DNA of 64,000 nt, taken from positions 17,358,714 to 17,422,713 of the forward strand of contig NC_092678.1 in NCBI RefSeq assembly GCF_964355755.1, in the 5' to 3' direction. A model generated the notes under the pieces. That model was given only the letters and a program-made list of their open reading frames with translations, did no database searches and was not told the DNA's origin. The stretch comes from Antedon mediterranea (Eukaryota > Animalia > Echinodermata). Shown piece by piece: positions 6,471-62,926 of this stretch. The first letter of the stretch is position 1, and each line of letters opens with the position of its first letter. A program made the translations under genes and the position numbers.

Positions 6471-6473
6471 ATT

Positions 6474-7945: not shown

Positions 7946-8017
7946 AGTTGTGTCAATGATGTCAATCCATGAAACACATTTGCTGTTAATGTTGTTATTT
8001 GGTTAACGGACAACCAT
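7946..8017 (-). CDS. LRR exon (72 nt): WLSVNQITTLTANVFHGLTSLTQL
   Basis: ttttcag acceptor, GTAAGT donor, phase 2-2, typical 24-aa extracellular LRR consensus. Confidence 0.9.
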
Positions 8018-8169
8018 CTGAAAACCGTGAAAAATGCAATACATAAGTTTAGTTTTGGATGAATATTCTGTCTTTGCAAAGGATAAAAAATGAAATTATG
8101 TGACGACAATAAGTGTGGTTTTATTACAACAAAAATATACTATTTTCAAAAGTATTATAAACAAGTGAA

Positions 8170-8221
8170 ACATTCGAACACATTTGCTGGTAATGTTGTT
8201 ATTTGGTTATTGGCCAACCAC
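8170..8221 (-). pseudogene. Truncated LRR pseudo-exon (WLANNQITTLPANVFE...), donor end deleted
   Basis: Acceptor and first ~16 codons present; 3' part and donor missing relative to the 7946 exon. Confidence 0.75.
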
Positions 8222-10494
8222 CTGAAAAATGTGAAAAATGTAATAAATAATATATACAGTACCAAGGGATAGGATGATAAAACATTATATATTTTATATA
8301 TAATTTAGAAAAACAAACAAAACATAACAATAAATATCTTATTGTGCCAGCAGAGGTCAAGTCCAATTAGGCGTGTCACTCCAGAAGTGAAACCATTACA
8401 AGGTATATACAAGGACATACTAATACTTGTTTAATGTTACTTTAGCTCGTATTATCATTATTTGCATGTTTTAGCTGTTTTTCATTAACTTCTTCTACAT
8501 GATATAATTATATTTTATCTATATTTTACTGTAATCATGTTGTACTTTCCATATCATATGATGACATAGATCAATATCTACGATACAATACAACCGTTAA
8601 ATGACGATGATCCATGTGTTCTGCTATATTTTTACGTTTCGTTATGGCCGCCGATGGTGCTACAGTAACTGAATTAAATAGTCTTGAGTTCGAATAAACA
8701 ATGCCAAAATAGAAAAACTCAAAAAGAGCAAAAAGAAAGACATTACATTTGAACGTATTACGAATGAAACAGACATATTTCATTGAAGTATTAATTCCTA
8801 AAATAAAATAATTGTTTTTATGAGGAAAAGAGTTAAACTGACGTTTTCATGAGAGGAAGATATATAATATTTGTTCCTCATGCAAAATAAGCTTATTACA
8901 ACACTATTACACTAAAGCATAAAGTTACACTTAACTGTGCTTTAAAATAAACATAATTAAAAGCATTACACAGTATAGGCCTAATAGTTCACCCGATAAA
9001 AATTTCTGATTTGTCCAAATTTTTTTTAAAAAAATCTGACAAATATAAACATGAAGAAATAAAAAACAATGTCGTTAATATACATCAGACTTAAGAATAA
9101 TGACATCAATTTTCGATAATCATAAGGACGAGTTCTCGAATGATTATCTCATTTGTGCCCATGGAATTGATATTTCCTAAGTTCACCTAACTACGGAGGA
9201 ATAACGCATTTATATTATGACTACATTAATCATAATGTTTAATGATGCTGTGTTATCGAATTTTCTATGTTACTGGAGAAATCGGGATACAATACCGATA
9301 ACCAGGTGTGTTAGACCAGAATACGTTACTCCGGCTTAAAATGGAGGTATTTGCTTTAACCACGTTCTGAAATGTGTCTGTAAGATTATGTTAGGCAAAA
9401 ACAACACCTTGTATACCATAGCAGCCTGGTGTAGAGACCTATGTATTGCCTTCGCTAAATCCTTTCTTAAACTTGTTCCCACTTATACCTTCTGGAGAAA
9501 TGTTATCCATAGATATAACCCTAATATACTGCTGATTGGATTCGTCATATTATAATTGTAACACAATGTGTCATAAGAACTGTTCGTTATACCTTGGTAG
9601 TAAGTGGTGCAATTAATTAAAGAATTATATGATTTGTAAATAGTTTACACAAAGTGCAACACAGTGTGACGTATTATCTGCTACAATATCTAATGATTAC
9701 ACATTTTTAATAATTATGTAAATTCTCATTTAATAAAACACTTATAATAACAAATTACCGTATTAAACGTACAAATCAAAGTATAAAAACAATAAGTATA
9801 TACAGTACGAACAGAAATTACGATAATAAAGTGTCTATTTATTAATTTCGAAATACAAAAAAAAAATAAAAACAAATTATTTATATTGTGCCAACAGAGG
9901 CCAAAAAGACTTATGTCCAATTAGGCGTGTCACTCTGACAGTGAAACAATTACAAGGTATAATTGATATAATACTAATTTAATGTTACTTTATCTCGTAT
10001 TATCATTTCATGTTTTAGCTGTTTTTCATTAACTGTCTTTGCATGATTATAACAATGTTTTATCTAGATTGACTGTAATCATGTTGTACTTTCCATATCA
10101 TATGATTTCTCGTATTATCATTATTTGCATGTTTTAGCTGTTTTTCATATGATTTCTAGATGTATTTCAATATCTACGATACAATACAACCGTTAAATGA
10201 CGATGATCCATGTATTCTGCTATATTTTTATTTTTCATTATGGCCGCCGATGGTGCTACAGTAACTGAATTAAAGAGACAAAACAATGCCAAAATAGAAA
10301 AACTCAAAAAGAGCAAAAAGAGAGATATTACATTTGAACGTATTACACATGAAACAGACATATTTCATAGAAGTATTAATTCCTAAAACAAAATAATTGT
10401 TTTTATGTTTAACTCTATGCCTCATAGAGTTAAACTGACGTTTTCATGATATGAAGATATATACTATTTGTTCCACGTGCACAATAAGCTTATA

Positions 10495-11442
10495 TACTCA
10501 TGGTTTGTGAAAGAATATTTCATTATTCCAATGTCACAACTAAAATGGGAAGAGTACTTCAATGATAACAACATTGATTGGAAAACTTCTTGGTTACGGA
10601 AAGTATGTAAAATGAAAGATAAGAAACTAGCACAATTCAATTATAAGATGTTACATAGAATACTGCCTACCAACAAACGGCTGTACCAGTGGAAAGTTAA
10701 GGAAACACAAACGTGTGACAAATGTGGAGAAATTGAAAATGAAAATCATTTGTTTTTTAGTTGTGGATTTATTCAGAAATATTGGAGGAAAATGTTTAGT
10801 ATCTTTGTAAGTTTAAATCACAATAATATATCATTTAAACAATTAATACTAGGAACGGGAGATAAGCTAATAGATTATATTTACACTTTTTCAGCAATAT
10901 ACTATTTATAGAATAAAAATGTTATCTGCACTAAATAAGCCAGTGGGTAAATCTTTATGGAATTCATTTAAAAGCAATATGTTATATATCATTGAATGTG
11001 AAACATATAAAAATAAAGAAACAAGTATAGAAAAATGGGTAGCTTTAAGAAATAAGATTATGATAATATAATTTCTAATTTGATACGATTAACCGAAAAA
11101 GAATTACAGTGATACGGGTTACTGGTGGTACTGAGCTATTATTGGTTTTTTTTATCATGTATATAAATATATTGTATAATCCGGGTTGTAAAATGAAAAC
11201 AAACAAATGAAAATGTGTGAACTATTTTAAAACGGGATAGATGATAATGATGATCCTGTCAAGTGTATAACAAATATAAGAAAAGTAATGAAAAAAGGAG
11301 TAATACAGAATTCATAATATGTAAAAATGTTACTTATGAACTGTAACGACATTTACAAGTTAAATAATACGATTTTATGTAATATGAGATAATATGAATG
11401 TGAATAAAAGTGGTGTTTGCGCCACAAAAGAGAAAAAAAAAA
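10495..11442 (+). mobile_element. 5'-truncated Tx1/L1-clade LINE (zf-RVT C-terminus, 3' UTR, polyA)
   Basis: ORF 10468-10911 has FNYKMLHRILPTN...CDKC...ENENHLFFSC (zf-RVT motif); AATAAA at ~11404 and A-tail at 11433-11442. Confidence 0.85.
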
Positions 11443-12967
11443 TGTGTTAATTAATGAGATGTAAAGCACATTTTAGCATGAGAAAGTGAAAATATGGAGG
11501 GAAAGAAAACATAAAGTGTAGACACAATTATCACCTCACAAGCAATCTATTGCTGACCCAGTGTGAAGCCAGAAATCAAGAGTTGTTCCTGCTCCCCAAT
11601 TATTGTGGTCCCTTTATTTATAAAACTTGAAAAGCAGAAAAAGGGGAGGAGGTGTATGTTTGTTTGTTGGCAGACTATAACGCTGGTTCAGATTTTAAGT
11701 TAAGTTTATCTTACGGACGGATAACGCTAATAATGTACGTACCACAACATTAGGTAACCGATGCGCCCCCATTATGACACGTGTCAATAAAGAACAAGTG
11801 CTATTCCACTGTACGGAAGGATAGCTACCCAATGCCTCTCATAATAACATTATTTTTCATTCAATAACATATACTAATAATGATGATAATAATTTACTCT
11901 AAAACAAACGAATACAAGTAGGCCTCATTACACACAATACAACTACATACAGGAGCTTGTGTTAAAATAAAGGTTTAGTGATCAATCATAATCAAACAAA
12001 AACGGGCATATTATATTATTTTAGTTTTGGATGAATATTCTGTCTTTACAAAGGTTACACCCCCCGGGGAAATTTGGCGACCGGCACTCCAAAAAGCTGG
12101 TAACATCCCTGCGTTATTATATGAATACCTGCAAATATTGAAAAAAAAGACACACATTTCAAACTGATTGATTTAAAACAATATATTAATAATAATACTG
12201 TACAACAATACAATAAATAGATAACCACTACATTTGTCTGATATATTTCACAGTAGGCCTACAGTTATTTGTATTCAGCATTTCAGTGGGCGATTTAGAC
12301 TTCGTTTGGCACTCGAAACAATGTCAAATGAAAGGCAAGCTAATATTGCCATGAGGAGGTGCAAATCTGAGGGAGCAGAAAATATAAAGTGAACAATTCC
12401 AAACAGATATCACCTCAACTTTATTTATAAAACTTGAAAATCAGAAAAAAAAGGGGAGAAGATAGTGTATTATTTGTGGTTGTTGCCAGATGCCTAAACT
12501 CTAGAAAATGATAAATTAAGTTTATCTTACGGACGGATAACGCTAATAATAACAATTATTAATTCATAGTTATGCTTTATAGCTTTTTGAGGGTTTTTTT
12601 TCGTGCACTTAGAAGAACTTATTTAAAGTGCATTTTAAGTATTGTTTTTCTTCTAGATTATTTCAGTCATCACAATAGTTAATGTTTGTTTAATTTGGAG
12701 GTTCAGACTTAAACACAAAGTACCAATGTATAAAGTGCACTATGCTGTGTGAAATAAAACTGAAACTGAATGTACGTACCACCACATTAGGTAACCGATG
12801 CGCCCTCATTATGACGATTTTTTTAGAGAAAGATACAAACCATCTGTTGCGCGTGCGAATAAAGAACACGTGCAGCTATTCCACCGTACGAAGTGAAAGA
12901 TAACAAATGCCTCTCATAATAACATTATTTTTCATTTAATAATATTTACTAATAATGATAATAACAA

Positions 12968-14006
12968 CTAGATTTGAACTCGTAACTATGGACGAGTTAG
13001 GTTATCCGCAGCGAAAATGCCACGTGTACGTCATACTTTAGAATATTGCGCACAGAAAAACGATTATGCCATTGAAAAAATGTTAGTGTGCTCTCAATTA
13101 TATGTCACGTCTAAGTATATAGAGTATACACTATATATCTGTATACGTACTACAACCAGTGCAGAATAGGTGAAAATACCGGGACCCGCTTTGTCATCCA
13201 ATTTTTACCATGATGATGTCATCAAAATGAAACACGTAGATAGCAATTTTGGAAGGAAATTATCTGAGCAACAACATATCGTGTTGAAAAAATTTGGATA
13301 CGTAGAATACGGAAGCGCGCTCTTTTAAATGTCATGAACTATGACGCAAAATATGAAATTACGACTTTTATAATTGAACTGGCCATATGATGACGTCACA
13401 ACATCCAAATCGCATAATTTGTACATGATTTCCAGCTTCCAGAAAACGTTTTAATCATGTGTATCACTTTTTATTCTGATGAGCTATAATAAATTTAAAT
13501 TTATTGGAATGATGAAAAAAAATGATCAAAGTTATTCACGCTTTTGAACATGATGAAGTCATCGCAATTTTAAAAATTGTAAATCAAGCGAAAGATAATT
13601 GATTGACCTAGACAATATAAAAAAATGGTGGGAAATGGAATATGGATAAGTGGAGATGCGTTCTATTAAATGTGATGAGCTATGACAAAAGAGACAACAA
13701 TCCTATATTTTATATTCGAGTGGCCATACGATGACGTCACAATGTCTAGTTAGCCATATTGATACATGATCCGATATCAACAACTCATCTACTTCCAGAA
13801 TATGTAAAAAAATAAACTTCACCATGTAGTTTAGAAACTATGACTGTTTTAAAAAAGGCATAATTATGACGATTTATTTTACTTTTTCAGCAAAAACGAG
13901 CGCAAATTGTCCAATTCGACGTGCTCGTACGACGTGATTTTAAGTCGAAATTGTTTGAAAGCTGGTAAAATTACTAGAAAATACTGGAAAAACATAAATC
14001 ACGCGA
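12968..14006 (-). mobile_element. Non-autonomous Helitron/Helentron-like element, copy 1
   Basis: Minus-strand 3' end has hairpin AACTCGT...ACGAGTT followed by CTAG|T; absent from the paralogous empty site at ~11870-11900. Confidence 0.55.
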
Positions 14007-14154
14007 AAAAAAATAACATTTACTAATAATGATAATAATAATTATACGAATAGGAAAAAGGGTAAAAAATAAAATAATGTGACAATAAGTGTGGTTACAT
14101 TACAACGAAAATATACTATTTTCAAAAGTATGATAAACAAGAGAAGGCACTCAC

Positions 14155-14226
14155 AGTGCTGTCAATGATGTCAAACCATCAAACACATTGGCTGGTAATG
14201 TTGTTATTTGGTTATAGGACAACGAT
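14155..14226 (-). CDS. LRR exon (72 nt): SLSYNQITTLPANVFDGLTSLTAL
   Basis: ttttcag acceptor, GTGAGT donor, phase 2-2, LRR consensus. Confidence 0.9.
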
Positions 14227-14377
14227 CTGAAAACCGAGAAAAATGCAATACATAAGTTTAGTTTTGGATGAATATTCTGTCTTTGCAAAGGATAAAAAAT
14301 GAAATTATGTGACAATAAGTGTGGTTTTATTACAACGAAAATATACTATTTTCAAAAGTATTATAAACAAGTGAAAC

Positions 14378-14428
14378 ATTCGAACACATTTGCTGGTAAT
14401 TGTTGTTATTTGGTTATTGGCCAACCAC
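14378..14428 (-). pseudogene. Truncated LRR pseudo-exon with an extra 1-nt insertion
   Basis: Duplicate of 8170-8221. Confidence 0.75.
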
Positions 14429-17400
14429 CTGAAAATTGTGAAAAATGTAATAAATAATATATACAGTACCAAGGGATAGGATGATAAAACATTATATATT
14501 TTATATATAATTTAGAAAAACAAACAAAACATAACAATAAATATCTTATTGTGCTAGCAGAGGTCAAGTCCAATTAGGCGTGTCATTCCAGAAGTGAAAC
14601 CATTACAAGGTATATACAAGGACATACTAATACTTGTTTAATGTTACTTTAGCTCGTATTATCATGTTATTTGCATGTTTTAGCTGTTTTTCATTAACTT
14701 CTTCTACATGATATATAATTATGTTTTATCTATATTTTACTGTAATCATGTTGTACTTTGCATATCATATGATGACATAGATCAATATCTACGATACAAT
14801 ACAACAGTTAAATGACGATGATCCATGTGTTCTGCTATATTTTTACGTTTCGTTATGGCCGCCGATGGTGCTACAGTAACTGAATTAAATAGTCTTGAGT
14901 TCGCATAAACAATGCCAAAATAGAAAAACTCAAAAAGAGCAAAAAGAAAGATATTACATTTGAACGTATTACGCATGAAACAGACATATTTCATTGAAGT
15001 ATTAATTCCTAAAATAAAATAATTGTTTTATGAGGAAAAGAGTTAAACTGACGTTTTCATGAGAGGAAGATATATAATATTTGTTCCTCATGCAAAATAA
15101 GCTTATTACAACACTATTACACTAAAGCATAAAGTTACACTTAACTGTGCTTTAAAATAAACATAATTAAAAGCATTACACAGTATAGGCCTAATAGTTT
15201 ACCCGATAAAAATTTCTGATTTGTCCAAATTTCTTTTAAAAAAATCTGACAAATATAAACATGAAGAAATAAGAAACAATGTCGTTAATATACATCAGAC
15301 GTAAGAATAATGACATCAATTTTCGATAATCATAAGGACGAGTTTTCGAATGATTCTCTCATTTGTGCCCATGGAATTGATATTTCCTAAGTTCACCTAA
15401 CTACGGAGGATTAACGCTTTTATATTATGACTACATTAATCATAATGTTTAATGATGCTGTGTTATCGAATTGTCTATGTTACTGGAGAAATCGGGATAC
15501 AGTACCAATAATCAGGTGTGTTAGACCGGAATACGTTACTCCGGCTTAAAATGGAGGTCTTTGCTTCAACCACGTTCTGAAATGTGTCTGTAAGATTATG
15601 TTAGGCAAAAACAACACCTTGTATACCATAGCAGCCTGGTGTAGAGACCTATGTATTGCCTTCGCTAAATCCTTTCTTAAACTTGTTCCCACTTATACCT
15701 TCTAGAGGAATGTTATCCATAGATATAACCCTAATATACTGCTGATTGGATTCGTCATATTATAATTGTAACACAATGTGTCATAGAACTGTTCGTTATA
15801 CCATGGTAGTATGTGGTGCAATTAATTAAAGAATTATATGAGTTGTAAATAGTTTACACAAAGTGCAACACAGTGTGACGTATTATCTGCTACAATATCT
15901 AATGATTACACATTTTTAATAATTATGTAAATTCTCATTTAATAAAACATACCACTTATAATAACAAATTACCGTATTAAACGTACAAATCAAAGTATAA
16001 AAACAATAAGTATATAGTACCAACGGAAATTACGATAAAAAAATATCTATTTATTAATTTCGAATATACAAAAAAAAAAATAACAACAAACTATCTATAT
16101 TGTGCCAACAGAGGCCAAAAAGGCTTAGGTCCAATTAGGCGTGTCACTCTGACAGTGAAACAATTACAAGGTATAATTGATATAATACTAATGTTAATGT
16201 TACTTTATCTCGTATTATCATTTCATGTTTTTCATTAACTGTCTTTGCATGATTATAACAATGTTTTATCTAGATTGACTGTAATCATGTTGTACTTTCC
16301 ATATCATATGATTTCTAGACATAGATCAATATCTACGATACCGGTACAATACAACCGTTAAATGACGATGATCCATGTATTCTGCTATATTTTTATTTTT
16401 CATTATGGCCGCCGATGTTGCTACAGTAACTGAATTAAATACCGTAATCGCATAAACAATGTCAAAATAGAAAAACTCAAAAAGAGCAAAAAAAAAAAGA
16501 TATTACATTTGAACGTATTACACATGAAACAGACATATTTCATAGAAGTATTAATTCCTAAAACAAAATAATTGTTTTTATGTTTAACTCTATGCCTAAT
16601 AGAGTTAAACTGACGTTTTCATGAGATGAAGATATATACTATTTGTTCCACGTGCACAATAAGCTTATAAAACTATTGCAGATTATACGTGAATCGGACC
16701 GGTGACGAGTCGGTGACAAACCGAACGGATCATCCAGGAGTTCTGAAACGTCTGGCCAAGTGCGCTCTCTTTGCGCAGTATTATACGGAGGCGTGTCTAT
16801 TTTTGTTTTCGTATCTAATTTTGGCTTTAAAAACATGTCAGCCCAAAATAATCGCTACCCCTGGATCCGCCCCGTCGGAATATTGTCGATATAAAATGAT
16901 GGAGGTTCAGACGTTCTGTGGTACATTTAAATTGTATTATTTGTATTCCCTCTTTAAACTTCATCTTAATTTCAATATAATAATATCAATTAAGTAATAT
17001 TGTTTACTTAGAAGTGTGCCAGTTATTAAGCACTGAAGAAAACAAAATCAGAAAAATGTAAACACATGTTACCAGGTTTTTTTAAAACATTAATAAAGCT
17101 AAGTGTGTTAATTAATGAGATGTAAAGCACATTTTAGCATGAGGAAGTGAAAATATGGAGGGAAAGAAAACATAAAGTGTAGACACAGATATCACCTCAC
17201 AAGCAATCTATTGCTGACCCAGTGTGAAGCTAGAAATCAAGAGTTGTTCCTGCTCCCCAATTATTGTGGTCCCTTTATCTATAAAACTTGAAAAGCAGAA
17301 AAAAGAGGAGGAGGTGTATGTTTGTTTGTTGGCAGACTATAACGCTGGTTCAGATTTTAAGTTAAGTTTATCTTACGGACAGATAACGCTAATAATGTAC

Positions 17401-18843
17401 GTACCACAACATTAGGTAACCGATGCGCCCCCATTATGACACGTGTGAATAAAGAACAAGTGCTATTCCACTGTACGGAAGGATAGCTAACCGATGCCTC
17501 TCATAATAATATTATTTTTCATTCAATAACATATACTAATAATGATAATAATAATTTACTTTAAAACAAACGAAAGGTTGTAGTCAAGAGGCAGGAAACT
17601 GCAGGTGTTGTTTATTGCCTTTAGACATAAACAGGTACCACCGTACGAGAATCGGGTGTCCAACGGACGAGTACCATGTGTGTATATCGGGAACAAAGCT
17701 ATTATAAAGTGTACAGATTTTACAGACTATGTCTACGACACATAATATGTTGTATGACAAGAATTAATGAATATGAGTCCGATAATTGTACAGAGTATCA
17801 AACAACTACATGTGGATTATTAAACATTTTGACAAACATAGCGTTTCATACGTATAGTACGTGTACACACTTTATAGAAAACATTGAAACGCGACAACAG
17901 AAAAAAGACAATAACAGAGACTTGGGACAAGTCTATACAGTATTAATTTACAGTATTGAAAGTGATGAAGCAAAAGCAGAAAATGCACCTTGATCTATGG
18001 TAGTTATGGCATTATCGTTTAAATACCTACAGATATTGAAAAAAAAAAGACATTTCAAATTATTAATAATAATACTGTACAACAATACAATAAATAGACA
18101 ACCACTACATTTGTCTGCTATATTTCACAGTACAGTTATTTGTATTCAGCATTTCAGTGGGCGATTTAGACTTCGTCTGGCACTCGAAACAATGTCAAAT
18201 GAAAGGCAGACTAATATTGCCGAGAGGAGGTGCAAATCTGAGGGAGCGGAAAATATAAAGTGTACAATTCCAAACAGATATCACCTCAACTTTATTTATA
18301 AAACTTGAAAATCAGAAAAAAAGGGGAGAAGGTAGTGTATTATTTGTGGTTGTTGCCAGATGCCTAAACTCTAGAAAATGATAAATTAAGTTTATCTTAC
18401 GGACGGATAACGCTAATAATAACAATTATTAATTCATAGTTATGCTTTATAGCTTTTTGAGGTTTTTTTTCGTGCACTTAGAAGAACTTATTTAAAGTGC
18501 ATTTTAAGTATTGTTTTTCTTCTAGATTATTTCAGTCATCACAATAGTTAATGTTTGTTTTATTTGGAGGTTCAGACTTTAAACACAAAGTACAAATATA
18601 CAGTATAAAGTGCACTATGCTGTGTGAAATAAAACTGAAACTGAATGTACGTACCACCACATTAGGTAACCGATGCGCTCTCATTATGACGTTTTTTATA
18701 AGAGAAAGATACAAACCATGTGTTGCGCGTGCGAATAAAGAACAAGTGCAGCTATTCCACCGTACGGAGGGAAAGATAACCAATGCCTCTCATAATAACA
18801 TTATTTTTCATTTAATAATATTTACTAGTAATGGTAATAACAA

Positions 18844-19899
18844 CTAGATTTTAACTCGTCACTATGAACGAGTTAAGTTATCCGCAGCACAAACGCCACG
18901 TGCACGTCATACTTTAGAATATTGCGCACACAGAAAAACGATTATGCCATTTAAAAAATGTTAGTGTGCTCTCTATTTTGTGTCACGTCTAAGTATATAG
19001 AGTATACACTATATCTCTGTATACGTACTACATACAGTGCAGAATAGATGAAAATACCGGAACCCGCGTTTTCATCCAATTTTTACAATGATGATGATGA
19101 TACAATGTGATAGCAATTTTGCAAGGAAATTATCTGAGCAACAACGTATCAACGTGTTGAATAAATTTGGATACGTAGAATACGGAAACACGCTCTTTTA
19201 AATGTCATGAACTATGACGCAAAATATGAAATTAATTAAAATTAATTATAATTGAACTGGCCATATGATGACGTCACAACATTCGATTCGCATAATTTGT
19301 ACATGAATTCCTATCTACAATTCAACAGCTTCCAGAAAACGTTTTAATCATGAGTATCACTTTTTATTCTGAGGAGCTATAATAAATTTAAATTTATTGG
19401 AATGATGAAAAAAAGTGACCAAAGTTATTCACGCTTTTGAACATGATGAAGTCATCACAATTTTAAAAGTGGTAAATCATGCGAAAGATAATTGATTGAC
19501 CTAAACAATATAAACATATGGGGGAAAATGGAATATGGATAACTGGAGATGCGCTCTATTAAATGTCATGAGCTATGACAAAAGAGACAAAAATCCTATA
19601 TTTTATATTCGAGTGGCCATACGATGACGTCACAATGTCTAGTTAGCCATATTGATACATGATCCGATATCAATAACTCATATACTTCCAGAATATGTAA
19701 AAAAAAAACTTCACCATGTAGTTTAGAAACTATGACTGTTTTAAAAAAGGCATAATTTTGACGATTTTTTTTTACTTTTTCATCAAAAACGGGCGCAAAT
19801 TGTCCAATTCGACGTGCTCGTATGACGTGATTTTAATTCGAAATTGTTTGAAAGCTGTTAAAATTACTAGAAAAGGCTGAAAAAACATAAATCACTTGA
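18844..19899 (-). mobile_element. Non-autonomous Helitron/Helentron-like element, copy 2 (co-duplicated with host)
   Basis: Highly similar to 12968-14006 with the same flanks. Confidence 0.55.
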
Positions 19900-20046
19900 A
19901 AAAAATAACATTTACTAATAATGATAATAATATTTATACGAATAGGGCAAAGGGTAAAAAATAAAATGATGTGACAATAAGTGTGGTTATATTACAACGA
20001 AAATATACTACTTTCAAAAGTATGATAAACAAGAGCAAACACTCAC

Positions 20047-20118
20047 AGTTCTGTCAATGATGTCAAACCTTCAAACACATTCTCTGTTAATGTAGTTATT
20101 TGGTTATGGTTTAACCAC
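20047..20118 (-). CDS. LRR exon (72 nt): WLNHNQITTLTENVFEGLTSLTEL
   Basis: gttttcag acceptor, GTGAGT donor, phase 2-2, LRR consensus. Confidence 0.9.
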
Positions 20119-22559
20119 CTGAAAACAGTGAAAAAATGCAATAAATAAGTACAGTATATATATAGTACCAAAGAATAGTAAGATAAAAATTATCTATTTT
20201 ATTAATTTAGAAATACTTTCCATATCATATGATTTCTGGATGTAGATCAATATCTAATGCATTAAATAAGTATATATACAGTACCAAAGGATAGTACGAT
20301 AACAAAAAATATTTTTTAAATTTCGAAATACAAACAAAATATAACAACATATATCTATATTGTGCCAACAGAGGTCATAAACGGCTTATGTCTAATTAGG
20401 CGTGTCACTCCAGCAGTGAAACCATTACAGGGTATATACAAGGACATAATAATATTTGTTTAATGTTACTTCAGCTCGTATTATCATTAGTTGCATGTTT
20501 TAGCTGTTTTTCTTTAACTGCTTTTACATGATATAACTATGTTTTATCTGGAATTACTTTAATCATGTTGTACGTTCCATATCATATGATGACATAGATC
20601 AATATCTACGATACAATACAACCGTTTAATGCCTATGATCCATGTGTTCTGCTATATTTTTACGTTTGGTTATGGCCGTCGATGGTGCTACAGTAACTGA
20701 ATTAAATAGTCTTGTTCGCAAACAATGCCAAAATAGAAAAACTCAAAAGGAGCAAAAAGAAAGATATTACATTTGATCGTATTACGCATGAAACAGACAT
20801 ATTTCATTGAAGTATTAATTCCTAAAATAAAATAATTGTTTTTATGAGAAAAAGAGTTAAACTGACGTTTTCATGAGAGGAAAATATACAATATTTGTTC
20901 CTCGTGCACAATAAGCATATTACAACACTATTACACTAAAGCATAAAGTTACACTTAACTGTGCCTTAATACCGTTTAATAGTTCACCCGATACAACATT
21001 CTGATTTGTCCAAATTAAAAAAAAAAATCTGACAAATATAAACATGAAGAAATAAAAAGCAATGTCATTAATATCAGACTTATGAATAATGACATCAAAT
21101 TTCGATAATCATAAGGACGAGTTCTCGAATGATTCTCTCTTTGTGCCGATGGAATTGATATTTCCTAAGTTCACCTAACTACGGAGGAATAACGCTGTTC
21201 ATGTACGTACCACACTACATTAGATAACAGATGCCTCACATAATTACGTTTTCATGAGAGGAAGATATATCACATTTGTTCCGTGTTAACAATAAGCTTA
21301 TTACAACACTATTGCAAATCATATATGAAATGATACAATATGTCATAGTTCACTACTGTAGTGGAGTTTTAACGCAAACGTATACGTACCACCACACTAT
21401 ATAGATAACAAATGGCTCTTATAATGACGTTTTCTTAGAGGAAGATATATAACATTTGTTCCGCGTGCAAAATAAGCTTATAACGCTATTGTAGATTATT
21501 CGTGAATCGAAACAATTATGTTCAGTGTGCCTATTCCTTCTTGTTTTACTGTGGACAACCGCATAGAGAAACTTTAACATTTAACGCCATGCATCTGGAT
21601 TGTCTGTGATTTTAAAGGATGTCAATGCTATCTCCACATATGACAATTATTTCAATTTTGTAATACAGAATCTCAAATGTATCACATGTGGTTCTTGTAT
21701 CATTAGGTTAAGAATAAACATTTAAAATAATTATATAATTTCTCATTTAATAAAACATACCAGTTATACAACAAACTACGTACAGGAGCTCGAGCTTGTG
21801 TTAAATTAGTACATATGTTCTATCATTTATATTAAGAATACATTAATCATAATGTTTAATGATGCTGTATTATCAAATTTTAATGTTACTGGAGAAATCG
21901 AGATACAATACCGATAATCGGGTGTGTTAGACCAGAATACGTTACTCCTGCTTAAAATGGAGGCCTTTCCTTTAACCACGTTCTGAAATGTGCCTGAAAG
22001 ATTAGGCAAAAGCAACACCTTTTATACCATAGCAGCCTGGTGTAGAGACCTATGTATTGCCTTCGCTAAATCCTTTCTTAAACTTGTTCCAACTTATACC
22101 TTCTAGAGGAATGTTATCCATATATATAACCCTAATATACTGCTGATTAGATTCGTCATTTTATAATTGTAACACAATGTGTCATAAGAACTGTTCGTTA
22201 TACCATGGTAGTATGTGGTGCAATTAATTAAAGAATTATATGATTTGTAAATATTTTAGACAAAGTTCAACACAGTGTGACGTATTATCTGCTACAATAT
22301 CTAATGATTACACATTTTTAATAATTATGTAATTTCTCATTTAATAAAATATACCACTTATAATAGCAAATTACCGTATTAAACGTACAAATCAAAGTAT
22401 AAAAACAATAAGTATATACAGTACCAACGGAACTTAATTATTCTTACCAAGAAATAATACTTTAAGAACAATATTCTTACCAAGAATTTAATTGCTTTTT
22501 TCATTCTTGTTTTAAGCAGTATCTGCCTTAAAATAAGTAACAATTTATCGATTTTTTAA

Positions 22560-23810
22560 AATAGAATTCTTGTTTAAAGCAATATTTTTCTTAAAATAAG
22601 TAAGAATATTCCGATTTGTATTTTTTTGAATTCTTGTTTCAAGCAATATATTTCTTAAAATAAGTAAGAATATTCCGATTTGTATTTTATAGAATTCTTG
22701 TTTCAAGCAATATATTTCTTAAAATAAGTAAGAATATTCCGATTTGTATTTTTTTGAATTCTTGTTTCAAGCAAGATATTTCCTAAAATAAGTAAGAATA
22801 TTCCGATTTGTATTTTATAGAATTCTTGTTTCAAGCAATATATTTCTTAAAATAAGTAAGAATATTCCGATTTGTATTTTTTTGAATTCTTGTTTCAAGC
22901 AAGATATTTCTTAAAATAAGTAAGAATATTCCGATTTTTATTTTTTGAATTCTTGTTTCAAGCAATATTTTTCTTAAAATAAGTAAGAATATTCCGATTT
23001 GTATTTTTTGAATTCTTGTTTCAAGCAATATTTTTCTTAAAATAAGTAAGAATATTCCGATTTGTATTTTTTGAATTCTTGTTTCAAGCAATTTTTTTCT
23101 TAAAATAAGTAAGAATATTCCGATTTGTATTTTTTGAATTCTTGTTTCAAGCAAAATATTTCTTAAAATAAGTAAGAATATTCCGATTTTTATTTGTAGA
23201 ATTCTTGTTTCAAGCAATATTTTTCTTAAAATAAGTAATACAGGGTATTCCGATTTGTATTTTTTAGAATTCTTGTTTTAAGCAATATTTTTCTTAAAAT
23301 AAGTAAGAATATTCCGATTTTTAATTTTAATATTCTTGTTTCAAGCAATATATTTCTTAAAATAAGTAAGAATATTCCGATTTGTATTTTTTGAATTCTT
23401 GTTTCAAGCAATATTTTTCTTAAAATAAGTAAGAATATTCCGATTTGTATTTTTTGAATTCTTGTTTCAAGCAATATTTTTCTTAAAATAAGTAAGAATA
23501 TTCCGATTTGTATTTTTTGAATTCTTGTTTCAAGCAATATGTTTCTTAAAATAAGTAAGAATATTCCGATTTTTATTTGTAGAATTCTTGTTTCAAGCAA
23601 TATTTTTCTTAAAATAAGTAAGAATATTCCGGTTTGTATTTTTTAGAATTCTTGTTTTAAGCAATATTTTTCTTAAAATAAGTAAGAATATTCCGATTTA
23701 TATTTTTAGTTTTCTTGTTTCAAGCAATATATTTCTTAAAATAAGTAACAATATTCCGATTTTTATTTGTAGAATTCTTGTTTCAAGCAAAACTTTTTTT
23801 TAAAATAAAT
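22560..23810. repeat. ~63-64-bp tandem array (~19 units)
   Basis: Unit TTCTTGTTTCAAGCAATATTTTTCTTAAAATAAGTAAGAATATTCCGATTTGTATTTTTTGAA. Confidence 0.95.
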
Positions 23811-24249
23811 AAACAAGAAGTCTATCAAATAAAAACCAGTAAATGTTTACTTATTTTAAGAAAAGTATTGCTTGAAACAAGAATTCTATCAAATTAAAAT
23901 TCGTAAATTCTTACTTATATTGCGAAAAAAATTGCTTGAAACAAGAATTCTATAAAATATAAATCACTAAAAATTTATTTTAAGAACGATAAATAAATTC
24001 TCATTTTAAGTAATATTTTACTTAAACAAATAAATTCAAGAATGTTATAAAACATAATATTAACAATACTGTTATTTTCATTAAGAACTACAATTTACAT
24101 GACATTAGGTACAATAATATATACAACTTCTTTAAAACAAACTTGTTTTTATTAATAATAAAATGCCATCAAAAGAAAACTTAAAAACATTAAAATGGTA
24201 AAATACAAATTTCGTAAAATTCTTCTCCCGCACATGGGCTTTAAACTAT

Positions 24250-27250: not shown

Positions 27251-27259
27251 GGATGACAA

Positions 27260-50500: not shown

Positions 50501-50650
50501 ATAGCAAAAATAGCTGCTATAGCAGTGAAACACTTAGCCCTTAGACTTCAATAGCACAATAACATATCACTAGCAACCACAACTGCTTTTCCAGCTATAA
50601 GCAGAAATAGCAATATTAGCATAAATAGCATGGTTAAAGCAACAAATAGC
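47563..50650. repeat. ~93-bp tandem array (~30 units)
   Basis: Unit ...GCTATAGCAAAAATAGCTGCTATAGCAGTAACACTTAACCCT..ACTTCAATAGC...; shares TAGC/GCTA motifs with the left 57-bp array. Confidence 0.95.
48657..48946 (+). mobile_element. 5'-truncated DeuSINE inserted in the 93-bp array
   Basis: B-box GGTTCGAGGCTC, same Deu core as 35300-35410, (AAAC)n tail, probable ATAAA TSD. Confidence 0.85.
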
Positions 50651-53706: not shown

Positions 53707-54980
53707 AGCTTTCAATTGCCATAGTTGCTTTCTGGACGCACCAAAAGCGTTCGATCGAGTCAAATCTTATTTAAAGTTTTAGTTGAAAGAGGTGTGCCTA
53801 TCTTTGTAGTTAGGATCTTACGACTGGTATGATAATCAAGAATTTGTTGTTAGATGGAGATATTGTGTCCCTTCACCTTTTTTCTGTTATTAACGGTGTG
53901 CGCCAAGGGGGTGTAATGTCTCCACTGCTTTACAATGTAGCCTATTATATTGAAGATCTTTATGTACAACTTAGAGAGTCCAATCATGGGTGTACTATTG
54001 GTGATAACAAATTTAATTGTCTCAGTTACGCTGATGACATGCTTCTCATGGCTCCTTTTTCTATTGGAGTACTGAATCTCATTAATGTTTTTGGACTTTA
54101 TGCTACGAATCGAGATATTGTGTACGGTACTATACAATCCAAGTGTATGTTTTTATGTGCTCGTGTACGTAAGTTACAAGGTTGACCTAGTGTTAAGCTA
54201 AACCACACTGACCTTGAATTTGTTGACTGTATAACATACTTGGGTCATGTGATTTGTAACTCTCTGAATGATGATAATGATATTAAGAAACAGTATCGAG
54301 CTATGTGTATCAAAGCTAATGCATTATGCAGGACATTCTCCAAATGTTCCGTTGAAGTTAAATGTCAGTTATTTAAAATGTTTTGCGTTAATGTAGGCCA
54401 ATACTGTATGACTCTATGGAGTAAATTCCGTGAAGGTACTGTAAACTAATTTAGAGTTTTCTTTAATAACGGGTTGCGTAAGCTACTGAAAATTCTTAGT
54501 TATAGCATGATTTTTTTTAACGAATAACGTTCCCTCATTCTATAATTTGATGGAACGCTATACATTATAGTTTTAAGAGCATAATTCATGACAGTTGCAA
54601 TAGCCTGATTGAACCATAGTTAACGTCATTCCACAATCCAACCTACATCAGCGTTTGGTACAAATTGGTATTTTTTAGGATATTGTAAGTTGATTTGTGG
54701 AAGTTGCTTATTTAATTTCCTGGTTAAATTGTTTCTATTTTTTGTTTTTTTTTATGATTTGTATATGGATGTACTATCCGAAATAAAGAAAATGAATGAA
54801 TGAATGAATAGTGTACCGTCATTTTAAAAGTGATATTATTGGCCTAATACAACGTCATGGTATTTAGAAACAGTCAAACCAACCCTTAAATGCATAATTT
54901 CACAATTAACCAGATATACTTACAATTGTAAAGCTTTTAAATGTTTACAAGTAAGGACAAAAATGAGAATAAACACTTAC

Positions 54981-56021: not shown

Positions 56022-59000
56022 CACTGTGCAACTGTAGTGCTGTTTTTTTTGTTTATTCTTTAGTTCGATTCTTCCAGCATAGTATTGTTTTATTTATTTA
56101 ATCTATAGAAGGTTCATAACAATACGAACGTTAGATTATTGTAAAAAAAAATGTTCGATAAACTAAGTCATTGGATTTTTGTCTAGATTTGGTAGTTTTT
56201 TTATGTTTACGAATTAATTTTTCCATTGGTTAAGGGGGATTGGTCGGCTGAATTTTAATAATGTGTATGATTTAGCTCACAGCTGTTCCAGAAATATGAA
56301 TTAAGTGCAGCGCCCCCAACGTTTCATAGCGTTTTATGGAGTAGCGATTCCGAAAACATATTGTATACAAACCACATGAGGAACCCGGAAGCAATCAAGC
56401 ATAAAACGACTGTTTTTTAATAGCCAATAAAAACAAATAAAGACCGCGAAAGTCAGAAATATAATGAATATTCATTAGAACAACCCTGGATGAAGGTGAA
56501 AAACATGTTGTCGTCGTTTTATCACGTGGATTTTAAGAGGTAATGTAATTGAAAATTGTACACCCAACGCCAGTTTTTTTTCTCAAGTGATACATTTAAA
56601 AAGTAGGTATAAATGTTGTTTTCCATATCAGTTTAAAAATAATTTTTTCTGTTGAATTCTTTGATTTAGTTGGATACTTTAGTTATCCTTGAATGTTTTA
56701 ACAAGGATCGTATTCATATTGCCTGGCTGGATTTTTTCCTATGCTAGCTTATAATAGGCTATGCCCAGGCCCCTTGCGTGGTTAAAACCAGCTGTGTAAG
56801 ACTAATGGCTGTTTATTTTTAACACGTAAACATGTATATTCGGGGGGCCTGAGTGACAGTTGACCTGTTATAAAGCTGATTAATTACTTGTTCCTGGTCC
56901 TAATTAAAAATTAGGCCTAGTCTAGGCCTAAGCTTTTTTAATAATCATTCATATTGGGAAAGGAGTACAGAGTAGGCCAGGCTACAGGCCTAGCTAGGCC
57001 TATATTATATATAGGCTAGGCTACCTCATCAGCAGGTTAAAGGCTAGCAGCCTACCTAGCATGTCTTAGTCAAAGATCTGTAATATATTAATAGAAAGAA
57101 GTTATAGAGTACTGTGACATTAGATATTTAATCATAAATGCATATTTCTTTCATATTTGTATTGTATATTTATTATTTTGATATGCAATGAATCACAATC
57201 TAAATCAGTAAATAACATAAATTTCCGTTATCAATAAATAATTATTAATATATAAACCAAATTAAAATAAAATAACTGTTTATTTTTAACACGTAAACAT
57301 GTCTATTCGGGGGCCTAAATGACAGTTGACCTGTTATAAAGCTGATTAATTACTTGTTCCTGGTCCTAATTAAAAATTAGGCCTAGCCTAGGCCTAAGCT
57401 TTTTTAATAATCATTCATATTGGGAGAGAGGAGTACAGAGTAGGCCAGGTTACATCCCTAGCTAGGCCTATACTATATATAGGCTAGGCTACAACATCAG
57501 CAGGTTAAAGGCTAGCAGCCTACCTAGCATGTCTTAGTCAAAGATCTGTAATATATTAATAGAAAGAAGCTATAGAGTACTGTGACATTAGATATTTAAT
57601 TATAAATGCATATTTCTTTCATATTTGTATTGTATATGCAATCACAATCTAAATCAGTAAATAACATCAATTTCCGTTATCAATCAATAATATATATAAA
57701 CCAAATTAAAATAAAATAACTTCCAAAAAATTAAATTCAATTACAATTCATATACCATTTGTTAAATATTCACAAAATCATTGTTCTAGCAATAACACAA
57801 AAAATACTACCATTCATACAGTATACTGTACATAATAATATGCAATACTGTAACAATTAACTGAGAAATAGCAAACTATTCCTCAACTTTTCTGCACTTA
57901 GTTACCGGCCTAGTTACTTCATGCTGGATCTCAGGTGAAATAAACGTCAGATGTGACTTCATGATTTCCCACAAAACTCTTTCCATGGTACTGCTGTCGA
58001 GGAATTTAAATACCTCGTCCATTTTTGTACATAGAGGTCCAGTTTCAAATCTCTTGGTTCATAGTAGTTCGCTATATAAAATATATAAAAGAAATATGGC
58101 ATTCATTTTTATAGTATTGCATGTTTTAGACATAATTTTAAAGGTATATAATGTAGGACTGACCAAGTCTTTGACCTCTTGTTCTTTTAGATTTATTCTG
58201 TGGCCAGTCTCTGCAATCTTACTATGCTGTTTTGTCACAAGTGACACTGAGAGTTCATTTCTTAAATGCTCAAGATTCTTTTCTAAAGACTGGATTTTAA
58301 TCATTGTACTTTGTAGCATGTCGATGTGCTGCAGCTTCTGATTTTCTCTTTCTGCTAGATGATCACCTGAGATTAAACAATATTGGTCAACCAAATAAAT
58401 GTCAATCTGCATGAAAAATGAGCATCAAAATTATTATATTTTCAAAATGTTAACAACTATTTCTTGTAGCAGATGATAATAATATATGGATAATTCATAG
58501 GAAAATAAGTTCCAGCCAAAGGTTTGCTTTATTATGCATAAAAATAGGATAAACAATTTTGAAATTCTAGGCTCAAAGGGACAATGTATATTTAAAGAGC
58601 AACTTGACCAATTGAGTTATTATGTAATGTCAATGTAAAGTTGAAACAACATTTGAATTTACCAGTCAAGATGTCAGCATCCTGTCGCATGTTGAATATT
58701 ATAACATATTGACACCTGGAAAAATAGTTGATTGAGGAAATATTTAATAAAGAAAAGAGGTATATTTATAAATTACTGTAACAATTGTTTGTTTCGACAG
58801 TTATTTTATACTAACATTGTTCTTTAATATGAAGTACAAACACACTTTTCATTGTTTGGAGTGTGTATTAAACTTTCTAAAGAGGTGGTTATGATTATTT
58901 ACCTACCCTGTTTAATTCAATGTCTACCAGGTATGGCCTAACAACACTGTGCGATATTGTTTTGCTTTTTTTTTTTCACTGCCATGGTCTACAAAAAACT

Positions 59001-60150
59001 TGTAGTCATGATTGTAGGCCTTGAGATATCTACAGGCTTGAGGAACATTGTTGGTTCTGATGTCATCTTGATTACAAAAACAATAGATGCAACTGTACTT
59101 TCCTTTAAAAATAAATCAATTTTTAAATCTACAGTACTTCAGTTTTGTGTCCAAACAAATCCAAACAAGAGAGCTAATAGTCAAAATATTAAAACATTAT
59201 TATACAAATGTATTACTATTAAGGCCTAGCCTAGGCTGTGACTGTCACTCAGTCACACCAGCTAGCCTAAAAATGCACCAGGAAAGCAATAATTATTATT
59301 ATAAACACATGCCATTAATTATTTGGTAACAGTTATAATGATTAACTTTATGATTAGGGTAATTAAAGGTTTAACTATTACGAATTTTCTATGTTTCGGT
59401 CTAGCTTTATTCTAGGCCCACATTACCGTCACGGTCATCGTGGGCGTCAACGCACTTTCTAAGCCTATTGCCAAACCGTTTTCTCGCCGACAACAATAAC
59501 AATGTATAAAGGGGTTGCAAAATATGCGAGTTTTACTAAAAACTGAACCAGGCTATATTTACAAAACTAGTATTATTTTGTTTATATAATAATGATGGAC
59601 TATATTCTAGTTCGTTCTTTTTCTAAAAAAATTTATTATATCCAAAAAAAAGTAAAGAATACAATGATATTTTCTACTTACGATTGTTTACCATTTCTTT
59701 ACACAGTTTATCTTGACTTCCTGGTTTATGTGCTGGAGAGTATTTCAGTAAAATGGACAATATCGTGGTTTATTTATTAATTTATAGTAAAGAAACAATA
59801 AAATATTTATTTTTTAATTGAACATACACTTTTTTTAATCATTTAGTTTTGTATAAAATGTTTTACTACATAAAAACTCACGATAGCGAAATTTAATTTG
59901 GCGTTCGCGAAATAATGGTTTGTAAACAAAAATTATATGTCCGCGCGACTCGGGAGAGCCTCGTCTGCTAACACTGAGGGCGCTTGACTTTTTCTGATAT
60001 CTTAACACTAGTTGAAACAGCTGTGAGCTTTGTAATTTATTTGTCATAGGTATAATCTCTGGTCTATGAGCAAGTGCAAATATTCTACAATTCAGACTCG
60101 ATTCAATGAAATTAAGCAAATTTTGTTTAGGAATTAATGTTAGATGGTGT
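56022..60150 (-). mobile_element. Degenerate Chapaev/Transib (RAG1-related) DNA transposon, boundaries uncertain
   Basis: Minus-strand remnants GKYSCIYC...HDYKFFVDHGSEKKKAK...VVRPYLVDIELNR (~58905-59103) and GPLCTKMDEV...RQQYHGKSFVGNH (~57960-58045); inverted motif AGCTCACAGCTGTT at ~56274 and ~60015. Confidence 0.5.
56808..57720. repeat. Two-copy ~470-bp tandem duplication
   Basis: CTGTTTATTTTTAACACGTAAACATGT at ~56809 and ~57276. Confidence 0.9.
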
Positions 60151-60547
60151 GAGATAAAACGAGAAAATGTCAAGTTTATAACATGAAATGAAATTGAAGA
60201 TGAGTACCACTTTTTGTTAATAATTATGTTAATACAACTTAAATTTATCGTTTGATTTCTTTTGCAAAATACACTAAATTAGGAAAAACATATTTTATGT
60301 TGTATCCGCTTTAATAATAAAGAATAAATCAAAGAATTTGTTATTGTTCGCAGTCATACCACCATTATAACGCTTTAACAAACATTTTAACCTTTCCACG
60401 TATTAATGCCTTAGTGTACTAATATTACAATATATTGTAAGACTTTAGCACGTTACCCTGAACGTCATGGTATTTGGAAACAGTTAAACCTACCCTAAAT
60501 GTATAATCACAATTAACATGATTTACTGACAATTGTAAACAGCAACC

Positions 60548-61112: not shown

Positions 61113-61113
<1 letters not shown>

Positions 61114-61152
<39 letters not shown>
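61114..61152. repeat. (AT)n microsatellite
   Basis: Direct observation. Confidence 0.95.
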
Positions 61153-61154
<2 letters not shown>

Positions 61155-61487
61155 AAATACTACGTATGTAAAGATCAACGACTGTAACAATAACATCGGT
61201 GGATTTGAGGACAACCCTGAATACCTGTAATTACAAAACAGTAATATAACTTAAAACTTAAAATCATCAGCTAACATACCCTTTTATCCGCTTTGACAAT
61301 ACAGAATAAATCAAAGAAGTTGTTATTGTTCACAGTCATACCACCATAATGCTTCACTTTGAATGTACCGTAATTTTACAAGTAATATTTAACAGTTAAA
61401 CCTACCGTTAAATGTATAATTTCAGAAATAACATGATTTAGTTGAATTTTTATAAGTAAGAAAACAAAATGAGAAAAAAACACTTAC

Positions 61488-61559
61488 AGTGTAACCAATG
61501 ATGTCAAACCACCAAATGCATTTTCATGCAATTTAGTAATGCCGGTACTGCTTAAATCC
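61488..61559 (-). CDS. LRR exon (72 nt): DLSSTGITKLHENAFGGLTSLVTL
   Basis: ttttgaag acceptor, GTAAGT donor, phase 2-2; flanks paralogous to 54950-55310. Confidence 0.9.
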
Positions 61560-62790
61560 CTTCAAAATAAAAACAGTTGGTAAATAACAGTTCACGAGTT
61601 GAGGTTTTCTTCTTTGGGAAAAATATTTACAGTTTATGTCAGTAGATGAAATAGTGACCCTAAAATAATGTATCTGAAATGTACTATCATTGTGTATTAC
61701 TGTACGTGTTAGTGAAAGAGTAAAAGGTTTGATAACGGTACAATAAACGTTAAAATATTATTCAAATTATAAATACAAAATATATCGATTTAGTACGTAT
61801 TGTAGTACGTCAGGAATAGGTTGTTCGTTTACATAATTACTAATCTAAGACGGAGAGATAACATTTTAATACATCTTAAAGGCAATTGATAAATAATCAA
61901 TCACTTACTATAAGCAGACACGTAGCAAGAGTGTGTAACTTATTTGTTATTATAGAATAGAGATGTAATCTGAGGGTAGCCCACAAAAATTAAAGTATAA
62001 CTAAACGATAAAGAAAGACATTTATACAGAAGATCGATGTTATCTGATAACGATAATAATTAAAGTATAACTAAACGATGAAGAATATATACAGAAGATC
62101 GATGTTATCTGATAACTCGCCCAATGATATCAAACGGCGCCTCTACAGATTTACACATTGATTCAATTCAAAGAGTTTACACTGACGAGAAAAGTCAGCA
62201 TTTTTTTAAAGTTATGAATAATCAAGTACCAAAATAATAATAAAATTGTTTAAAATACCGTTCGTTATCTAATTTATGGACGTAGGAAGTCAAACAATTA
62301 ATATATGTACATATTTGTTATTTAGTGCCTTTGATTCTAACATCCGTTACTTTATGTGTTAACCCACCGTATACTAACATAATAGTGTCTGTTTCTGTGG
62401 TTAATTGCGCGATGCAATGCTGGTTTTTCAATTGAGGATTTGTCAGTTCTGTTCTCGCACGATTGTCCTGTATTTTTCCAATTAACTAATTTTAATTTTC
62501 CGTTGTATCATTTTCATTTCTATCATTTGTAATAAAAATATTATAAATTTATAGTAAAATTATTATTTTTTTAATATAAGCTTTAGAAATAACGTAACTG
62601 CGATCAACGTTTCAATGTTACATTAACTAATTGAAATTGTCTGTAATAAAAATTGTATAAATTATAATTATTTTTTTAATAACATAGACGTTGGGAATAA
62701 CGTAACTGCGATTAACGTTTCAATATGTAACTACACTTGTCTTATGTAGGTTAACAGTTTGCACAAAACAGGTCACTGGATGATACTTAC

Positions 62791-62926
62791 AAGAATGTTA
62801 TTGGTTGATGATTATTGTAGTTCTTGACGGATTCTGCTGTTGTATTAATATAATTCCGACAGTTTAAGTAGTTAAATGAACACGTGCATTTGATTGGACA
62901 TATCTGTGTTAGGAATATTAATTTTT
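62791..62926 (-). CDS. LRR N-terminal cap (LRRNT) exon: KLIFLTQICPIKCTCSFNYLNCRNYINTTAESVKNYNNHQPITFL
   Basis: (T)n-CAG acceptor, GTAAGT donor in phase 2 matching the next LRR exon; CPxxCxC-x6-C motif; open frame. Confidence 0.85.

Follow-up and report, generated by a model that had tools for sequence, protein, structure and literature searches.

Eight exons on the minus strand of the DNA analyzed here are likely, as judged from their sequences, to be the 5′ part of a probably working gene for a fast-evolving recognition protein, which would likely be displayed on the cell surface or secreted. The analyzed DNA, hereafter the window, is a 64,000-nt stretch of the AT-rich genome of Antedon mediterranea (GCF_964355755.1, NC_092678.1, 17,358,714–17,422,713), and all positions are counted within it. 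The reading that we favor, at a probability of roughly 60%, is that this gene gains and loses binding modules through duplication of exon-plus-intron units. It is probably a member of a multi-copy family, with its end lying beyond position 1.

The cap exon, the LRR exons and their joined frame

As originally predicted, an LRRNT-like exon is followed by six 72-nt phase-2 exons with canonical splice sites. The LRRNT-like cap exon (62791–62926, 136 nt) is entered in phase 1 and left in phase 2, the pattern C-P-x-x-C-x-C-x5-C can be read directly in it, and a start codon requires an upstream exon. The 72-nt LRR exons are L1 (61488–61559, phase 2-2), L2 (54981–55052), L3 (31431–31502), L4 (20047–20118), L5 (14155–14226) and L6 (7946–8017). 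L2 is an older duplicate of L1, to which it is 90% identical in the exon and 78% in the flanks. All seven of these exons have AG...GT(A/G)AGT splice ends, and joined by coordinates they form 188 codons without a stop, in agreement with the single open frame that had been claimed. The inventory itself was incomplete, however, as a 75-nt LRR exon (17952–18026, minus strand, phase 2-2, donor GTAAAT) that encodes a 25-residue repeat, and four dead exon copies, had been overlooked. With the 75-nt exon added, the join of eight exons remains open over 213 codons. The exons span about 55 kb, and the predicted introns, which range from 1.2 to 23 kb and have strong consensus donors, already contain repeat insertions of 7–20 kb.

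A profile search of the single exons recovered LRR_8 in the 72-nt exons but no family in the cap exon. All six 72-nt exons matched Pfam LRR_8 (E from 2e-5 to 0.015); none of these matches reached the whole-protein cut-off, as is expected for single-repeat queries, whereas the cap exon matched no Pfam family at E ≤ 1. Its Atlas lead was LRRNT (0.85), with nothing stronger. The 75-nt exon alone did not match Pfam; its HMM match was weak (domain E 4e-4), and its Atlas lead was to LRR clusters (0.96). In the whole window, six such 72-nt exons were found on the minus strand and none on the plus strand. Of 60 third-order Markov simulations, 58 yielded no such exon and two yielded one. Similarly, the 3′ motif and donor common to the exons had six matches and none in 100 shuffles, the motif having been built from the same six exons on which it was counted. 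An open 72-nt AG/GT stretch at 55807–55736 was without LRR likeness and was dismissed as a chance occurrence. One LRR per phase-2 exon is not unusual on its own, as passages of PMC6642158, PMC11378527 and PMC6564038 indicate.

Tandem units, dead exons and nested repeats

Comparison of the copies supports a recent multiplication of the LRR exons by duplication of exon-plus-intron units. The units that carry L4, L5 and L6 lie in tandem on the minus strand and are 87–94% identical. Unit 1 (17134–29900), which is enlarged by ~7 kb of repeat insertions, contains L4 and the 75-nt exon. Unit 2 (11440–17133) contains a dead copy, L5 and a truncated copy of the 75-nt exon. Unit 3 (7295–10494) contains a dead copy and L6, and a ~2 kb deletion at 7853–7860 took the region of its 75-nt exon. 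In total, the window holds seven intact LRR exons and four dead copies that lie in introns of the minus strand and have lost splice sites. A copy of L3 (approximately 35915–35978) has deletions in the acceptor tract, exon body and donor; two exons of the 72-nt type (14380–14428 and 8174–8221) have lost their 3′ part and donor, the former with an additional 1-nt insertion; and of the truncated 75-nt copy (12111–12128) the acceptor and ~18 nt are left. Thus, the earlier view of a solenoid that is still expanding holds for the recent duplication but not for the fate of the copies, as exons also die. Under the favored reading, unequal crossing over would produce the copies. A copy whose splice sites are kept would extend the LRR horseshoe by one rung and leave the frame intact; loss of the donor would silence a copy that is unwanted.

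Because each of the seven LRR exons is symmetric (phase 2-2), any of them could be skipped in frame, and skipping of LRR exons is documented in NLRP3 (PMC6642158, in part) and in brown-algal ROCOs (PMC11378527, in part). The cassettes could accordingly be alternatively spliced, either skipped or mutually exclusive in a Dscam-like manner, to give one gene many solenoid lengths and faces. We consider this quite improbable given the size of the introns and their strong donors; moreover, symmetric phase is required for duplication in any case, and the silencing of dead copies by donor loss suits constitutive inclusion.

Next to unit 3, only the beginning of a fourth unit (6676–7294) is found, which is cut, ahead of the expected site of the next exon, by a Ty3/gypsy LTR retrotransposon (3984–6678, minus strand; LTR ~6678–6474, broken gag, pol to RNase H). 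Its pol is 49–57% identical to elements named from fish, sea cucumber, bivalves, sponge and pseudoscorpion, a range that points to an animal host and to no narrower group. A 180-bp tandem array (1394–3807) interrupts this element, and positions 1–1393 have no homology to the unit. Given that the fourth unit, which begins at 7294, is cut at 6678, the array of exon-plus-intron units probably runs past position 1, and the continuation that had been predicted there is likely. The same cut, together with the lack of unit homology at positions 1–1393, the four dead exons, and a window in which neither the start codon nor the gene end was located, could also mean that this family member was recently disabled or truncated, its 3′ half having gone with the nested transposon insertions. 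Such an interpretation is unlikely: all eight retained exons are open and have good splice sites, whereas the dead copies are each clearly broken. In addition, given the 7–20 kb repeats already held by the introns, one more insertion need not break the gene.

Differences among the young exons

The six 72-nt exons are 57–90% identical in DNA, and their consensus core is nearly invariant. The numbers of distinct residues over the six exons were 1, 2, 1, 1, 1, 1 and 1 at the seven core positions and 4, 4, 5, 3 and 5 at five positions that we take, from the LxxLxLxxN consensus, to lie on the concave face. These five positions, which were fixed after the alignment had been seen, varied more than the other 11 surface positions (Mann-Whitney P = 0.006). 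At the predicted concave codons, L5-L6, L4-L5 and L4-L6 each had five replacement and no silent differences (pN 0.41–0.45), and pN of the remaining codons was 0.05–0.08. Against flank divergences of 0.025, 0.053 and 0.062, respectively, the concave excess had P values of 4e-6, 2e-4 and 5e-4 in three tests that are mutually dependent. Over all 4368 five-codon subsets of the non-core positions, an exact test gave P = 0.04, and the off-strand surface codons 11, 12 and 16 were equally variable. The older pair L1-L2 had no concave excess, with one of six replacements concave. The exon was the most divergent 72-nt segment of the duplicated unit: in one comparison it had 9 differences where no other segment of the 2.6 kb exceeded 7, and in another, over 2.1 kb, the values were 11 and 10. 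The dead exons that lie 200 bp upstream of L5 and of L6 have remnants with no substitutions between them, whereas L5 and L6 differed by five in the corresponding part. The absence of indels from the young exons was not significant alone (P 0.54–0.57). Taken at face value, these alignments suggest that the youngest copies differ mainly at the predicted binding face.

An excess of this kind could also have arisen without selection for new binding, if older paralogues had exchanged exons or undergone gene conversion and exposed residues were under relaxed constraint. Divergence in the flank adjoining L5 and L6 lies above the unit mean (5/90; 11/120 ungapped, a value inflated by an indel), which fits an exchange of short tracts. 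The silent divergence of L5-L6, 2 in 16.8 sites, likewise exceeds the unit mean of 2.5%, many related cassettes could serve as donors, and the subset test gave P = 0.04. However, silent changes are absent from the concave codons in all three young pairs, concave pN exceeds the silent rate three- to fourfold in both L4-L5 and L5-L6, and the excess persists against a background of 12% (P ≤ 0.01), so that exchange without selection appears rather unlikely. In the favored reading, the five variable codons would specify outward-facing residues of the concave β-strand, and selection would favor new residues there because the ligand changes; such a ligand would most likely be a microbial, parasite or allogeneic surface.

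Variants of L6 were also found in DNA contigs. Comparison of L6 with contigs from four runs yielded 108 contigs and 23 variant entries, of which 11 fell in the five concave codons and were all replacements, while the other 18 codons had seven replacements and five silent changes (Fisher P 1.6e-4, in a test that is not independent because 12 of the 23 entries repeat letters of window copies). The other 11 (four concave replacements, four other replacements and three silent changes) match no copy in the window; thus, further cassettes or alleles exist, and DNA contigs from two samples contain further variants. No indel was among the 23 entries inside L6. None of the 108 contigs was at least 99% like L6, which, as contigs drop variants, is no sign that L6 is absent. 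The summed depth over L2 and L6 was tens of times the single-contig depth in the unique 5′ region; no copy number can be derived from it, and it is a hint of a gene family. In one run, presumed to be of RNA, introns and repeats were covered as in DNA, and none of the joints listed was at an exon junction, which speaks neither for nor against expression.

Protein family and comparison with known systems

Cys caps are typical of extracellular LRR domains. The extracellular receptor originally proposed can therefore be retained as an LRR protein with one repeat per exon and a Cys cap, but not as an established membrane receptor or family member. No LRRCT, membrane segment, LDLa, TIR or other domain was found in the window, nor a 7TM exon in positions 1–7945. 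As neither a signal peptide nor an anchor was located in the window, the word receptor follows from the cap alone. The minus strand has no LDLa motif, yet just 1074 bp of the window lie upstream of the cap exon, whose phase-1 entry presumably fits an LDLa or signal-peptide exon. An LRR-GPCR end of the expanded GRL101-like type is a serious possibility, although single-pass, GPI and secreted ends, taken jointly, are somewhat favored. In a protein database, the cap exon, a short query in a weak search, had no match (one candidate). Of two LRR profile searches, one gave 21 of 610 candidates and the other 2436 representatives. A Pfam scan of 36 of the 150 listed among these representatives, together with inspection of four proteins, identified proteins that combine LRRs with cadherin, FN3, Calx-beta or PKD domains. 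No C[PS]xxCxC cap occurred in the 70 best profile matches per repeat; thus, these matches do not assign the protein to a family. No match came from two metagenome pattern scans.

The process proposed here has precedents in the ROCO genes of brown algae and the LRR genes of ciliates. Our literature search, mostly of papers outside subscription and of their main texts, found no such exon turnover described for an animal LRRNT-capped protein. Within one gene, the locus preserves how single binding modules arise, diverge and die, and the dead neighbors serve as an internal neutral control. If it does belong to an immune or allorecognition receptor family, it would provide a testable case, in an animal, of the diversification by exon cassettes that is known from brown algae and ciliates. 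Given that genes so built escape ORF scans and are easily mis-annotated, fast-evolving recognition families of invertebrates may be undercounted.

Similar to the exons of this study, those of the brown-algal LRR-ROCO genes, as described in sections of PMC3341825 and PMC11378527, are 72-nt phase-2 one-repeat exons with inactivated intron copies, selected concave sites and intragenic duplication, although the sample here is small. Different from the cytosolic ROC-COR GTPases of these algae, the animal protein has a 'typical' 24-residue repeat and a Cys cap and is likely extracellular; no ROC-COR domain was found in the window, and the cap and the animal host speak against one. The algal genes also have intact inverted exons on the non-coding strand, where none was found here. 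Compared with VLRs of lamprey and hagfish and the VLR-like proteins of amphioxus (PMC3900441 and PMC4731796, in part), the variation is likewise on the concave face, as predicted here, the repeat fits the LRRV 24-residue consensus as quoted in PMC4731796, and VLRs, VLR-derived repebodies and designed consensus LRRs are the top matches among 54 in the PDB. This resemblance is generic, however, as prokaryote-type LRR proteins score equally. VLRs are assembled somatically, in a manner like gene conversion, into an incomplete germline gene, whereas the cassettes here carry splice sites and follow the cap exon in order in the germline gene. Neither the connecting peptide, the LRRCT nor the stalk of VLRs was found in the window. 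A speculative and rather unlikely extension is an invertebrate family of VLR-like receptors that would be an exon-based equivalent of the lamprey system. Its spliceable LRR cassettes would be duplicated, traded among genes or alleles and perhaps skipped, so that individuals or cells would have different binding faces.

LGR/GRL101-like GPCRs share the LRR ectodomain. Gonadotropin receptors have phase-2 single-repeat exons (PMC11378527, in part), which are not diagnostic, and expanded variable clusters occur in a snail, as in the 12-gene cluster at the SudRes2 resistance locus of Biomphalaria sudanica (PMC12297450). These GPCRs have a rhodopsin-type 7TM domain after the LRRs and, in type C and GRL101, LDLa repeats before them; the window has no exon for either, and intragenic exon turnover is not among the features described for the snail cluster in the pertinent text of PMC12297450. 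Exon size and phase would also fit a conserved hormone or guidance gene present in single copy, such as a canonical LGR, Slit or LRIG (PMC6642158; PMC11378527 for gonadotropin receptors; both in part), and LGR4 and Slit2 are among the PDB matches. Such a gene is very improbable in view of the recent tandem duplication, dead exons and extra variants, a cap exon without Pfam or database match, and canonical LGRs that are single-copy in the ambulacrarians covered by 10.1101/2021.04.15.440029, as far as its text indicates.

According to passages of PMC6642158, Toll-like receptors have most of their LRR domain in one long exon, different from the one repeat per exon found here. Their TM and TIR domains, like the EGF, LamG or Ig domains downstream in Slit and LRIG, would lie outside the window if this gene had them. 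The LRR genes of Tetrahymena with 90-bp exons are alike in their phase-2 exon-plus-intron units, unequal crossing over and retroelements near young units (PMC6564038, in part), but the exons here are 72 or 75 nt, the units are ~6 kb, and the host is an animal. Human NLRs, Slit and LRRC37 also have frame-preserving exons of 69–75 bp with one repeat each (PMC6642158, in part); different from these exon-modular human genes, however, the turnover in A. mediterranea is of recent date, and intact copies lie next to dead ones.

Exons and open frame of the LRR gene

Scanning of the window for motifs in six frames and for AG/72/GT stretches identified six 72-nt leucine-rich repeat (LRR) exons on the minus strand, which start at 61559, 55052, 31502, 20118, 14226 and 8017 (L1 to L6 in gene order), and a Cys-rich cap exon at 62926–62791 on the same strand. 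As originally predicted, all six were phase-2 exons with canonical splice sites; their acceptors, like that of the cap exon, were AG and their donors GT(A/G)AGT. The cap exon has entry phase 1 and exit phase 2, and when joined by coordinates with the six LRR exons it yielded the single open frame that had been proposed (188 codons, stop-free). Each of the six LRR exons alone matched Pfam LRR_8, whereas the cap exon, predicted to encode an LRRNT, had no match in Pfam and only a weak Atlas lead to LRRNT (0.85). Because 58 of 60 simulated sequences contained no such LRR exon and the other two contained one, the six found here are far beyond chance. Judged from its sequence, the locus is rated a real gene fragment. 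The window was also searched for an LRRCT, an LDLa, a membrane segment and a start exon, none of which was detected.

The exons listed in the original prediction were thus present, but one 75-nt LRR exon and four dead copies had been overlooked. The 75-nt exon (18026–17952, minus strand), which emerged when every open phase-2 exon with strong splice sites was listed, is symmetric, encodes a 25-residue LRR and was grouped with LRR clusters by Atlas (0.96). With it the join remained open (213 codons); when this join was searched with an HMM of 202 unrelated repeats, seven repeats were recognized, that of the 75-nt exon weakly.

Tandem units, dead copies and transposons

The four dead copies were all in introns of the LRR gene: a decayed copy of L3 at ~35.9 kb, two copies of the 72-nt type at 14428 and 8221 that lost the 3′ part and donor to deletions, and, at 12128, a remaining 18-nt piece of the 75-nt exon. 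Self-comparison of the window placed L4, L5 and L6 in three tandem exon-plus-intron units; the identities were 94% between 7853–10494 and 14057–16669 and 91% between 12111–14257 and 18009–20150. Older flanks were common to L1 and L2 (78%). A fourth unit begins at 7294 and is interrupted at 6676, where a Ty3/gypsy LTR retrotransposon (3984–6678, minus strand; LTR, broken gag and pol) starts. The RNase H part of its pol is in turn interrupted by an element carrying a 180-bp tandem array (1394–3807), a nested insertion. This retrotransposon marks the host as an animal. In the simplest history, a unit carrying one 72-nt and one 75-nt exon would have been duplicated, a local 200-bp duplication would then have given rise to two 72-nt exons, of which one is dead and the other live, the unit with both would have been duplicated once more, and the 75-nt exon would have been lost from later units.

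Large satellite arrays (39266–45542, 47569–50630, 37419–38750, 22503–23971 and 27322–28730, with units of 76/77, 94, 56, 63 and 102 bp, respectively) fill the two longest introns. A KDZ (Kyakuja-Dileera-Zisupton) transposase fragment was found at 47121–47576 (minus strand; Pfam E 4e-6), and non-LTR retrotransposon fragments (zf-RVT and RVT_1) at 10450–10911 (plus strand), the border between tandem units 2 and 3, and at 53814–54185. The L1-L2 intron holds a multi-copy element of ~4 kb (56400–60250) with short ORFs and a 470-bp internal duplication (56809–57721). At 63672–64000 lies the terminal part of a repeat of very high copy number, whose core is (GACA/GACC)n; read depth there was hundreds of times that of the unique region. 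The CpG o/e of the whole window was 0.86. The octamer TAGGCCTA was in 63-fold excess and, together with overlapping octamers, 40- to 90-fold over-represented outside arrays across the whole window, which may be an echinoderm-like feature.

Variation at the predicted concave face

The LRR consensus core was almost invariant across the six 72-nt exons. Five codons of the exon (22, 23, 1, 3 and 4) encode the x residues of the LxxLxLxx strand, which presumably form the concave face, to judge from LRR structures in general. Among the six exons, 3–5 different residues occurred at each of them. Passages of PMC3900441 and PMC11378527 agree with this assignment. Three pairs of exons are young (L4-L5, L5-L6 and L4-L6) and not mutually independent; in each, these codons differed by 5 replacement changes and no silent ones (pN 0.41–0.45), compared with pN 0.05–0.08 for the remaining codons and a flank divergence of 2.5–6.2% (P 4e-6 to 5e-4 for the excess). 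The excess held at 12% background (P at most 0.01), and the LRR exon was the most divergent window within its duplicated unit. The older L1-L2 pair showed no concave excess. An exact test of the five codons, whose positions were fixed after the alignment had been seen, against other surface codons gave only P=0.04. Exchange of short tracts between cassettes may contribute to the excess.

The 5′ part of the locus occurred in five public sequencing runs, none of them registered as RNA. All four that were examined behaved as DNA; read depth over the locus does not equal copy number. Across 108 contigs, which came from no more than two samples, L6 had 23 variant rows. Eleven affected the five strand codons and were without exception replacements; the remaining 12 (7 replacement and 5 silent) affected the other 18 codons. 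No indel rows were found inside L6 in these contigs; in one, the donor was short by two bases. Ten of the 23 rows were letters of L4 or L5, two more matched dead copies as judged by eye, and 11 were new, so there are more cassettes or alleles than in the window. The predicted product is likely a diversifying recognition protein (probability about 0.6).

Candidate family and comparison with known systems

Among the matches listed, protein searches returned generic LRR proteins only, and a PDB profile search ranked variable lymphocyte receptors (VLRs), repebodies and designed consensus LRRs on top and LGR4 and Slit2 lower; the consensus is therefore VLR-like but not diagnostic. VLR membership itself fails on mode of assembly. 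The recent exon turnover makes a conserved hormone LGR, Slit or LRIG a poor fit, and a Toll-like receptor is unlikely on exon structure, as described in parts of PMC6642158 and 10.1101/269241. The gene may belong with expanded GRL101-like GPCRs, similar to those that excerpts of PMC12297450 place at the snail SudRes2 locus.

Phase-2 exons with one repeat each are common in animals, according to a portion of PMC6642158. Our literature searches found no such exon turnover described for an animal LRRNT-capped protein. Similar to the predicted gene, LRR exons of brown algae (sections of PMC3341825 and PMC11378527) and ciliates (a section of PMC6564038) show turnover, dead intronic copies and concave diversification. 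Exon turnover as such is known from these two groups, and the animal LRRNT-capped case would be a variant of it.
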